Source of the DNA: Escherichia coli
GTDB lineage: Bacteria; Pseudomonadota; Gammaproteobacteria; Enterobacterales; Enterobacteriaceae
Assembly (NCBI RefSeq): GCF_003334815.1
Contig: NZ_QOWO01000008.1
Strand: one strand, 5' to 3'
Length of the DNA stretch: 64,000 nucleotides
Part shown: positions 27,849 to 28,517 of the stretch, one piece after another
How the letters are laid out: every line of letters begins with the position of its first letter
How positions within the stretch are numbered: position 1 is the stretch's first letter
The notes under the pieces: generated by a model
What the model was told of the DNA's origin: nothing
Database searches by the model: none
What the model saw: the letters and a program-made list of their open reading frames with translations, nothing else
Program-made: the position numbers and the translations under genes

Positions 27849-28517
27849 AAACAGAACTGTACCTCGTTTAACCCGAAATCTGTTATCACATACAACGTTA
27901 ATTATGGCAAGCCATTTTTAAACATGTCTCGATCAGACGCACAAATCTCGATACGTCTTCCACTTTTTTTGCACACTTATGCAACGGAATACGCGCCGAT
28001 ATATCATTGTGCTTAACCTTGCCAGTTCAGGCAGATACTTAAACTGGCGTATTTTCTAACATAGTTCAATAAGTTCAGTTGTTCCAGGCCAGTGGGAGAA
28101 GTTATTACATAGTGCGTGCAATATCACATTTTTTGCTATGCAATGAATAAAAAGTTATATCACTTTTTCTCATAAAACAGTCAGTTAACGGCTATTAATT
28201 ACCCTAAAGAGAAGTCAATCCCCAAAGGGATTGTAAATTTAAAATAAGAAAAATTGATGAATGAGCAAAAAAATCAAGAGAGAAACGTTTCGCTAATAAA
28301 TAATACCACGCTTAATCACAAATCCGATGTAAACATCCTAATAAATTAATGGGGTAAATATCTTTTTCTGATATCCCGTTACGCAAATAAATAATATGAT
28401 AATTATTTGAAGTCAGACCAGAGTTTTAATTTGAAGCAGTTGCACCATGACAGTGCGTATAATCAGGATGAATTGAGTAACCCTTCAACGACGGGGTTAC
28501 TCAAGATTGAGGAAGGA

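Follow-up and report, generated by a model that had tools for sequence, protein, structure and literature searches.

The longest spacer of a 64-kb Escherichia coli stretch, upstream of yobF-cspC, as a probable composite control region

What does a long, AT-rich spacer without evident genes do upstream of yobF-cspC? The DNA analysed here, hereafter the window, is a 64,000-nt stretch of E. coli that matches E. coli K-12 MG1655 at 100%. The annotated limits of yobF and yebO (Table 1) define the spacer between them as exactly 27849–28517, or 669 nt. The original prediction had described it as the longest spacer of the window, as very AT-rich, and as free of open reading frames (ORFs) of 60 aa or more on the transcribed strand, and these three descriptions hold: (i) its 669 nt exceed all other gaps between annotated features, the next being 428, 421, and 395 nt; (ii) its GC content is 35.1% compared with 50.3% in the window, falling to 29% in 28100–28420, and the lowest-GC 300-nt stretch of the window (28.3% GC) begins at 28109; and (iii) the longest ORF wholly inside the spacer on the minus strand has 28 aa, and every ORF of at least 60 aa that reaches into the spacer overlaps yobF or yebO out of frame or in antisense. 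The spacer belongs to the core genome: 5,424 of 5,426 E. coli genomes have it. In a comparison of 7 E. coli, the block around the proximal promoter had 0 polymorphisms per 100 nt, versus 11 per 100 nt in 28091–28239.

We conclude, with high confidence, that the spacer is a composite control region of the yobF-cspC operon combined with the 3′ end of yebO. Two promoters, a short leader targeted by OxyS, and the yebO terminator are already in the literature; a recent paper names the promoters yobFp1 and yobFp2, and both starts appear in published maps of transcription start sites (TSSs). CspC is a global RNA chaperone, the loss of which is repeatedly selected in ageing colonies. CspC affects RpoS levels, stress tolerance, fitness in ageing colonies, and virulence-gene activation in Salmonella, which gives its control region real interest.

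Table 1. Features in and next to the yobF–yebO spacer (window positions; strand left empty where none applies).
Feature	Position	Strand	Basis or details
yobF	27705–27848	−	annotation
P1 leader, 26 nt	27849–27874	−	Shine-Dalgarno GAGG at 27865–27862; published OxyS pairing region
P2 transcript leader, 202 nt	27849–28050	−	TSS-seq; includes the whole P1 promoter
P1 promoter	27882–27920	−	A-tract TAAAAATGG 27920–27912; −35 TTGCCA 27910–27905; 17-nt spacer; −10 GATAAC 27887–27882
Weak CRP-like dyad TGTGCgtctgaTCGAG	27928–27943	−	putative; centred 61.5 nt upstream of P1 start
Imperfect palindrome GCATAAGTGTGCA	27970–27982	−	one of two family-wide copies
Hairpin at P2 transcript 5′ end, nt +3 to +30	28021–28048	−	folding
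P2 promoter	28058–28086	−	−35 TGGAAC 28086–28081; 17-nt spacer; −10 TATGTT 28063–28058
CRP-like site TGTGATATTGCACGCA	28113–28128		8/10 consensus positions; centred 70.5 nt upstream of P2 start
7-bp hairpin	28216–28233		sequence CAATCCCCAAAGGGATTG
Conserved island A	28240–28325		Escherichia, Salmonella, Citrobacter; 73–81% identity in ~20 loci
Predicted LacI/GalR-family-type operator, rbsO closest	28277–28296		sequence match, inside island A
Fast-evolving AT-rich DNA	28326–28468		without conserved block outside Escherichia
yebO terminator hairpin	28473–28504	−	11-bp stem UUGAGUAACCC/GGGUUACUCAA, 10-nt loop, U-poor tail
yebO	28518–28805	−	annotation

The expectation that the spacer carries the yobF-cspC promoter was borne out twice, and both promoters could be located in it. 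The proximal one, P1, has hexamers within the 16–18-nt spacing of sigma-70 promoters, a start 7 nt past the −10 element, and a TG two nt upstream of that element; TTGCCA-17-GATAAC is listed in a published table as the constitutive RpoD promoter of yobF-cspC. Its start (1905641 in U00096.2, window 27874) is covered by 249 TSS-seq reads, was also found by 5′ RACE (−26) and 454 sequencing (−25), and served as the known TSS for a published sigma-S ChIP-seq peak at 27780–28017, which covers P1. The proximal 98 nt (block 27849–27946) are 85–94% identical in all ~79 species and show no polymorphism among the 7 E. coli. The P1 leader is unstructured (z +1.1), and the small RNA (sRNA) OxyS represses yobF through pairing near the Shine-Dalgarno (SD) sequence. 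We infer that P1 is the main, largely constitutive promoter. In one study, a transcriptional fusion of the yobF upstream region was inactive under the low-Mg conditions used. A published RpoN/NtrC SELEX peak lies near P1, and a canonical −24/−12 element was not found there. The CRP-like dyad upstream of P1 matches only 6 of 10 CRP consensus positions; its TGTGC and GATC are invariant in the 25-genus alignment.

The distal promoter, P2, accounts for a second yobF start, which one published TSS-seq data set places at 1905817 (U00096.2, window 28050); it has 107 reads, and its 5′ UTR is 202 nt long. The upstream sequence published for this start is identical to the stretch analysed here. Both yobF starts were predicted by hexamers derived from the sequence and the alignments, and the P2 start had been estimated at ~28051 from the alignment before the published value of 28050 was met. 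In 60 of 76 Enterobacteriaceae loci, a TGGA(C/A)-N17-19-CTATGGT arrangement precedes the yobF ATG by 229–253 nt (mostly 239–240), as TGGAAC-17-TATGTT in E. coli and as TGGACG-17-TATGGT in most genera. The hexamer spacing, the conserved flanks, the variable spacer, and the mapped start are those of a sigma-70/sigma-S-type promoter, and the C at −13 hints at sigma-S. P2 may be a regulated auxiliary promoter, possibly responsive to sigma-S or CRP. The region is of the same kind as enterobacterial tandem-promoter stress-gene regions (yobFp1, yobFp2, and the predicted cspCp8), with two starts 176 nt apart serving one operon. Our analysis adds two points: the distance at which P2 is conserved hardly changes across Enterobacteriaceae, and the P2-to-P1 interval varies in sequence while keeping its length.

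The two starts bear differently on the long, structured 5′ UTR that had been predicted. The best-supported start yields a leader of 25–26 nt (249 versus 107 reads, counts that reflect one study’s conditions, so that P1 and P2 might rank differently in others), which goes halfway against that prediction. The 202-nt leader nevertheless exists, and it is no more structured than shuffled sequences (−59.3 kcal/mol, z −1.29). RNAalifold across 25 genera found essentially no covariation in it (term −0.22, 1 compensatory pair), and its first ~90 nt are not alignable between genera. These properties argue against the idea that the distal start yields a long, structured leader of the cspA type that senses temperature, acts as the main regulatory device, and explains the heat induction of YobF, which is reported, as cited in another paper, to be post-transcriptional. 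Such a leader would fit the length of the P2 transcript and the one compensatory change in its 5′ hairpin, and the Rfam cspA thermoregulator (RF01766) matches 27408–27868 with 135.5 bits, above the gathering threshold of 78. However, it is the cspC coding sequence that sustains this match, of which only 20 nt lie in the spacer, and the alignment of model positions 1–200 to the yobF coding sequence is gapped, of low posterior probability, and rich in non-canonical pairs. The match thus represents homology between the cspC and cspA coding sequences, with yobF occupying the place of the cspA leader. The better-supported yobF transcript, moreover, has the unstructured 26-nt leader. We regard the thermosensing reading as unlikely.

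At the other end of the spacer, GAGTAACCC-N10-GGGTTACTC at 28475–28502 belongs to a perfect inverted repeat, the full 11-bp stem of which spans 28473–28504 and folds at −15.5 kcal/mol (z −3.5 versus shuffles). Two published Term-seq data sets map the primary yebO 3′ end to 1908212/13 (window 28469/70), 3–4 nt past the stem. This palindrome does not lie in a yobF leader; it is the yebO terminator, with a mapped 3′ end. The stem is followed by the U-poor AAUUCAUCC; no U run was found after it (tail UUCAUCCUG after the 11-bp stem), the terminator scan did not pick up the hairpin, and the end at 28469/70 may have arisen by processing or protection. In other genera, this position is taken by a different GC-rich hairpin. 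Both palindromes noted originally do exist, at slightly different coordinates (28475–28502 rather than 28477–28506, and 28216–28233 rather than 28217–28234). The accompanying statement that they lack a terminator U-tract is only roughly right: it fits the yebO hairpin, but the hairpin at 28216–28233 is followed on the minus strand by ACUUCUCUUU and was scored as terminator-like.

Between this terminator and P2, conservation is confined to short islands. The segment 28326–28468 aligns only with 3 other Escherichia species, and islands A to C are common to Escherichia, Salmonella, and Citrobacter. In island A, invariant blocks combined with 1–2-nt indels in T-runs rule out coding on either strand, and the island is presumably a cluster of protein-binding sites. 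For island C, sigma-54, sigma-32, and sigma-E readings were rejected by eye because the spacing or key bases misfit. The AT-rich upstream half would act at the DNA level, through silencing and regulator binding, with no encoded product. It is improbable that the upstream spacer is instead a functionless relic, left by the decay of a gene that the lineage of Escherichia, Salmonella, and Citrobacter lost. A gene for a 331-aa MBL-fold hydrolase does lie between yebO and yobF on the same strand in 32 of 80 related species, and the lack of conserved blocks in 28326–28468 outside Escherichia would suit a relic. Against this, tblastn of two MBL proteins against the spacer returned only fragments with E≥0.2, scattered over both strands, and the genomes with the MBL gene keep ~520 nt between it and yobF, so that a relic could account for no more than ~150 nt of the spacer in E. 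coli.

An unannotated sRNA or small ORF had also been considered in the original prediction, and we found no support for it. An independent sRNA or small protein encoded in 28091–28468 and missed by annotation would be in keeping with the conservation of island A across three genera, with a 30-aa plus-strand ORF (28257–28349) that runs through the predicted operator and has a same-frame ORF in Citrobacter braakii, and with an in vitro run-off transcription/microarray study in which the forward-strand probe set of the spacer was sigma-S-preferred and “antisense of cspC” also scored. The two-promoter, minus-strand model does not explain this forward-strand signal. However, Citrobacter strains and Escherichia species differ in island A by 1–2-nt indels that throw the 30-aa ORF out of frame. 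The sole TSSs listed in the spacer are the two yobF starts, with none inside 28091–28468, in a table of gene-assigned starts from which orphan or antisense starts may be missing. Term-seq gives no 3′ end on either strand between a yobF-internal end (window 27736) and the yebO end. Rfam (E≤1, 24000–32000) returned no match to an sRNA or riboswitch family, and only the last 20 nt of the cspA-model match overlap the spacer. NC_000913.3 has no feature there, though it includes recently validated small proteins such as yoaL, and no feature occurs in the spacer of ~36 E. coli records examined out of the 5,424 matching genomes. Promoter-like sites are not enriched (3 found versus 3.1 expected).

The hairpin at 28216–28233, the candidate minus-strand terminator of such an RNA, is not kept even within E. 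coli. It folds well (z −3.6 versus shuffles); however, it is missing from other Escherichia species, has 4 variable positions among the 7 E. coli, and has a broken stem in Nissle-type strains. One terminator-like site (this one) was found where the shuffle comparison expects 0.7. We rejected the terminator or sRNA reading of this hairpin on its poor conservation within E. coli and the lack of a mapped 3′ end there; the hairpin is probably without function. Nor is it part of a yobF leader: it lies 166–183 nt upstream of the distal start and upstream of both promoters. The ORFs of 24–28 aa in the leader were likewise rejected as small genes, having unconserved start codons and a non-synonymous pattern of change, and in the P1 block substitutions fall on second codon positions and replace whole codons, which is not the pattern of a small protein. 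Taken with these points, a hidden sRNA or small protein is very unlikely. The practical value is negative: the largest unannotated gap of the window hides no gene, and the long leader is not riboswitch-like. Given the known parts and no sign of a hidden gene, the spacer is largely ordinary.

The hairpin with which the P2 transcript begins has a folding energy of −13.8 kcal/mol (z −3.0). Across E. coli strains, its pair 28047/28022 changes from C-G through U.G to U-A in minus-strand RNA, whereas on the plus strand it would pass via a C.A mismatch. In other genera, a different hairpin is often found at this position, with a weak signal (mean z −1.0). It is very improbable that this hairpin and the preceding A-run form a plus-strand intrinsic terminator of an antisense transcript over cspC-yobF. 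In favour of this reading, the plus-strand sequence after the hairpin is GUAUUUUCU in E. coli and CUUUUUU in many genera, and the in vitro sigma-S study scored the antisense and forward-strand probes. Against it, a stable stem lies within 2 nt of the T-run in only 11 of 60 loci, Enterobacter, Lelliottia, and Leclercia have a conserved 9–12-nt stretch between hairpin and T-run, Term-seq lists no plus-strand 3′ end at the hairpin, the intermediate E. coli allele keeps the pair in minus-strand RNA only, and flanks conserved on either side of a variable 17-nt spacer are what a promoter looks like, for which a minus-strand TSS maps exactly there.

Along the minus strand, the composite control region is arranged as follows. 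Transcripts of yebO stop at the U-poor hairpin terminator, with their 3′ end at 28469/70. Next come about 380 nt of fast-evolving AT-rich DNA, in which short conserved islands (rbsO-like, CRP-like, and GCATAAnTRTGCA) are candidate protein-binding sites. P2 initiates at 28050 and gives a 202-nt leader that starts with a hairpin, and P1, with its A-tract upstream, initiates at 27874 and gives a 26-nt leader in which the exposed SD is the OxyS target. Of this picture, the two starts, the 3′ end of yebO, and the pattern of conservation are shown directly.

H-NS binding to curved, AT-rich DNA had been suggested for this spacer. A published genomic SELEX table does give an H-NS flag and multiple RpoD holoenzyme peaks for the “670 bp spacer”, and the A/T tracts characteristic of H-NS regions are frequent (17.9 per kb in the spacer versus 10.5 per kb in the window), but the high-affinity motif is not enriched: the nucleation motif TCGATAAATT has one 2-mismatch match in the spacer, which is the background density. 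The spacer resembles H-NS-associated AT-rich intergenic regions in its centre of 29% GC, its A/T tracts, and its several RNA polymerase peaks. By contrast, it belongs to the core genome and not to a horizontally acquired island, and it is not enriched in the motif.

Among the candidate regulator sites, the operator-like site in island A reads TTAGCGAAACGTTTCTCTCT on the minus strand of 28277–28296 and agrees with rbsO (TCAGCGAAACGTTTCGCTGA) at 16 of 20 positions, with 13 of 14 core positions shared; no other 1-mismatch match occurs in the 64 kb. Its core, CGAAACGTTTCTCT, does not vary among the 24 aligned sequences from Escherichia, Salmonella, and Citrobacter, nor among 7 diverse E. coli. The palindrome type, with a central CG (GCGAAACGTTTC), is that of rbsO (the RbsR operator of the ribose operon) and of the Cra/FruR and PurR boxes. 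The site differs from rbsO in that its right arm has TCT instead of GCT and that it lies 229–244 nt upstream of the nearest mapped start (that of P2) rather than overlapping a promoter. Among the papers searched, none was found to link yobF to RbsR, FruR, or PurR.

The imperfect palindrome GCATAAGTGTGCA matches GCATAANTRTGCA exactly. Across 76 loci, matches with up to 3 mismatches are confined to two places relative to the yobF ATG, −134 (51 loci) and −290 to −305 (57 loci), and in most Enterobacteriaceae the two GCATAAnTRTGCA copies are 155–170 bp apart and flank P2. In E. coli, the upstream copy is degenerate, with only TTGCATAG...CAAAAAATGTG left (direct repeat D3). An NtrC reading of GCATAAGTGTGCA was rejected by eye, as the spacing or key bases misfit. 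It is conceivable, although we hold it only tentatively, that the upstream half ties cspC to a LacI-family repressor of the RbsR/Cra type at 28277–28296 and to a dimeric factor on the two GCATAAnTRTGCA palindromes, which might loop out P2. The invariant rbsO-like putative operator and the repeated palindrome may count as minor new leads, and they are cheap ones for studies of cspC regulation.

The CRP-like site upstream of P2 is of a kind that is no more frequent in the window than chance predicts on sequence alone, 8/10 matches to TGTGA-N6-TCACA numbering 20 versus 27.7 expected. Its TGTGAT half-site is conserved in Salmonella and Citrobacter, and a published genomic SELEX screen includes yobF among its predicted CRP targets.

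The yebO/yobF gap is the already known two-promoter control region of the yobF-cspC operon plus the yebO terminator. The window belongs to E. coli K-12: a 1.5-kb segment including the spacer is 100% identical to MG1655, and 5,425 of the 5,426 complete genomes of the species contain it (NC_000913.3 coordinate = window coordinate + 1,879,743). The gene ends of yebO and yobF define 27849–28517 as exactly the yebO/yobF spacer, which is thus 669 nt long. The observation of an AT-rich, ORF-poor spacer is confirmed: it is the largest annotated gap of the window (next 428, 421, and 395 nt), has a GC content of 35% versus 50% in the window, and contains minus-strand ORFs of at most 28 aa wholly within it; the GC minimum of the entire window among 300-nt stretches (28.3%) starts at 28109. 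Neither NC_000913.3 nor any of the approximately 36 E. coli records examined annotates a feature in the spacer. The interpretation placed on it in the original prediction is partly supported.

Features of the yebO–yobF–cspC region, in window coordinates
Feature	Position	Strand	Basis or detail
yebO	28518–28805	−	annotation
yebO terminator hairpin	28504–28473	−	11-bp hairpin with Term-seq 3′ end
Island A	28240–28325		alignments
Island B	~28110–28150		alignments
Island C	28052–28090		alignments; family-wide
P2	−35 28086–28081; −10 28063–28058; start 28050	−	
P2 transcript leader	opening hairpin 28048–28021	−	202 nt
Short ATATAT block	near 28000		alignments
GCATAAnTRTGCA, proximal copy	27970–27982		
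Island E	27968–27985		alignments
P1	A-tract 27920–27912; −35 27910–27905; −10 27887–27882; start 27874	−	
P1 transcript leader	GAGG 27865–27862	−	26 nt
yobF	27705–27848	−	annotation
cspC	27483–27692	−	annotation

The predicted yobF-cspC promoters are present as two mapped starts, both given in the TSS-seq supplement of Kim et al. 2012: (i) the proximal start P1 (1905641 in U00096.2), supported by 249 reads, which gives a 5′ UTR of 26 nt; and (ii) the distal start P2 (1905817), supported by 107 reads, which gives one of 202 nt. The short start was also reported at −26 by 5′ RACE and at −25 by 454 sequencing (Mendoza-Vargas et al. 2009), and a sigma-S ChIP-seq peak (27780–28017) lies over it (Peano et al. 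2015). In island C, a conserved block of the spacer, the conserved flanks CTGGAC and GCTATGGTAAAAAAG enclose a variable 17-nt spacer, an arrangement characteristic of a promoter. Its alignment predicted a P2 start near 28051, and the upstream sequence printed for the 1905817 start by Kim et al. 2012 is island C. In 60 of 76 loci, P2-like hexamers precede the yobF ATG by 229–253 nt (mostly 239–240). Shimada et al. 2014 described the constitutive RpoD promoter as TTGCCA-17-GATAAC and recorded a “670 bp spacer” with several RpoD peaks and an H-NS flag; of the predicted H-NS/Fis-type DNA, H-NS association is thereby reported. The names yobFp1, yobFp2, and predicted cspCp8 are mentioned in a 2026 paper. 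Published TSSs within yobF (U00096.2 1905588 and a neighbouring row) give cspC leaders of 119–129 nt, so cspC also has its own internal starts; a published 3′ end inside yobF lies at 27736, 44 nt upstream of cspC.

Both predicted palindromes are real and fold far better than shuffles, at slightly different positions (28216–28233 and 28475–28502). Neither is a leader element: that at 28475–28502 is the yebO terminator and that at 28216–28233 lies 166–183 nt upstream of P2. The primary yebO 3′ end (1908212/13; window 28469/70) of the Term-seq study of Adams et al. 2021 falls 3–4 nt past the 11-bp hairpin, and between 27736 and 28469 that study lists no further 3′ end, whatever its class. The 28216–28233 hairpin is absent in other Escherichia species, is disrupted in its stem in Nissle-type strains, has no mapped 3′ end in Term-seq, and is probably without function. 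Within yebO, the Term-seq supplements list internal 3′ ends (28625–28734), one of them scoring 3.55 for bicyclomycin read-through, and the authors cloned a yebO 5′ UTR+ORF reporter, which suggests Rho-dependent premature termination.

In the resulting model, the yebO terminator hairpin comes first along the minus strand; the next ~380 nt are AT-rich and carry conserved putative binding-site islands; P2 then initiates a transcript whose leader opens with a hairpin, and P1 one whose short leader carries GAGG. The long structured leader that had been predicted exists in its length, but the best-supported leader is that of P1, and the P2 leader is not demonstrably structured. With 30 nt of yobF attached, the P2 leader has a folding energy of −59.3 kcal/mol (z −1.29), and the P1 leader is unstructured (z +1.1). 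For the RNAalifold consensus over 25 genera the energy is −11 kcal/mol and the covariation term −0.22, and it contains 1 compensatory pair. The sole stand-out in the P2 leader is its 5′-terminal hairpin (z −3.0), in which one pair, read in the minus-strand RNA, changes from C-G through U.G to U-A within E. coli; its signal is weak across genera (mean z −1.0). A protective role for this hairpin is a reasonable inference; as an antisense terminator it fits only 11 of 60 loci. Homology in the cspC coding sequence accounts for an Rfam match to the cspA thermoregulator (27408–27868). Repression of yobF by OxyS involves pairing close to the Shine-Dalgarno sequence.

The suggested small RNA or small ORF found no support: (i) Rfam returned no sRNA or riboswitch family in the spacer; (ii) published TSS-seq/Term-seq maps contain no TSS or 3′ end inside 28091–28468; (iii) promoter-like and terminator-like sites in the spacer are at chance level; and (iv) in the alignments, island A carries frameshifting 1–2-nt indels and the start codons of leader ORFs are not conserved. 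An in vitro run-off/microarray study scored a forward-strand spacer probe set and “antisense of cspC” as sigma-S-preferred, most simply read as spurious initiation on naked AT-rich DNA.

Comparison of 80 Enterobacteriaceae loci, fetched with YebO as probe, revealed two architectures: yebO followed by 590–745 nt and yobF (Escherichia, Salmonella, Citrobacter, Klebsiella, and others), and yebO followed by a 331-aa MBL-fold metal-dependent hydrolase gene, ~520 nt, and yobF (32 of 80). Since both keep a long stretch before yobF, a long upstream region is general. The hydrolase gene (4308–5303 in comparison locus L009, and in 31 others) is carried by Lelliottia, many Enterobacter, Kosakonia, Buttiauxella, Cedecea, Leclercia, and Phytobacter and is absent from the four genera named for the first architecture; the E. 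coli spacer has no recognisable remnant of it. When the E. coli spacer was compared with every locus by blastn, the 98 nt preceding the yobF ATG (27849–27946) showed 85–94% identity in all ~79 species, blocks at 28240–28325 and ~28050–28090 were common to E. coli, Salmonella, and Citrobacter, and 28326–28517 was alignable within Escherichia only. Among 7 diverse E. coli, the P1 block has 0 variable sites, versus 11 per 100 nt in 28091–28239. A GATC (Dam) site at 27932–27935, ~60 nt upstream of the P1 start and within the conserved block TTTGTGCGnnnGATCGAGACA, is invariant in 25 of 25 aligned genera.

Three kinds of candidate regulator site are minor new leads from sequence. The minus strand at 28277–28296 (TTAGCGAAACGTTTCTCTCT) agrees with rbsO, the ribose operator, in 16 of 20 positions (core 13 of 14), and the core does not vary among 24 sequences of three genera or among seven E. 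coli; no paper in the literature set searched links yobF to RbsR, FruR, or PurR. A 20-nt direct repeat, 28286–28305 (CGTTTCGCTAATAAATAATA) and 28377–28396 (CGTTACGCAAATAAATAATA), has 90% identity 91 nt apart; the second copy, in the non-conserved AT-rich part, repeats the operator's right half together with its flank and may be an auxiliary half-site or have arisen by chance. Across 76 loci, the only positions of the 14-mer GCATAAnTRTGCAc relative to the yobF ATG are −134 and −290 to −305, its distal copy being degenerate in E. coli. The opening codons of yobH contain another near-exact copy of GCATAAnTRTGCA (GCATAACTGTGCG; 29197–29209, minus strand), ~150 nt upstream of the mgrB start given in the literature; chance alone would produce one to two matches of this kind in 64 kb. 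CRP-like dyads lie at 28113–28128 (8 of 10 positions; 70.5 nt upstream of P2) and 27928–27943 (6 of 10; 61.5 nt upstream of P1), neither above chance by sequence alone. SELEX studies list yobF as a target of CRP and of RpoN/NtrC.

IS1, IS5, or an IS with an integrase-core transposase lies near yobF in some complete E. coli genomes (L083, L084, and L085: a W3110-derived strain, AS19-RrmA-, and IAL7255), at the yobF 5′ end, the yobF/cspC junction, or ~50 nt upstream of yobF (~27693–27900), in agreement with the published IS-insertion hotspot at yobF-cspC in ageing colonies.

Elsewhere in the window, weak Rfam matches to Atu_C9 and STnc420 (31902–31965, minus strand) are confined to a hairpin of terminator type that separates yebQ from htpX; this hairpin is most likely the terminator of htpX rather than an sRNA. 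Upstream of mntP, 25718–25814 (plus strand) matches the Rfam manganese (yybP-ykoY) riboswitch at 41.6 bits against a gathering threshold of 45; this is the known mntP leader riboswitch.
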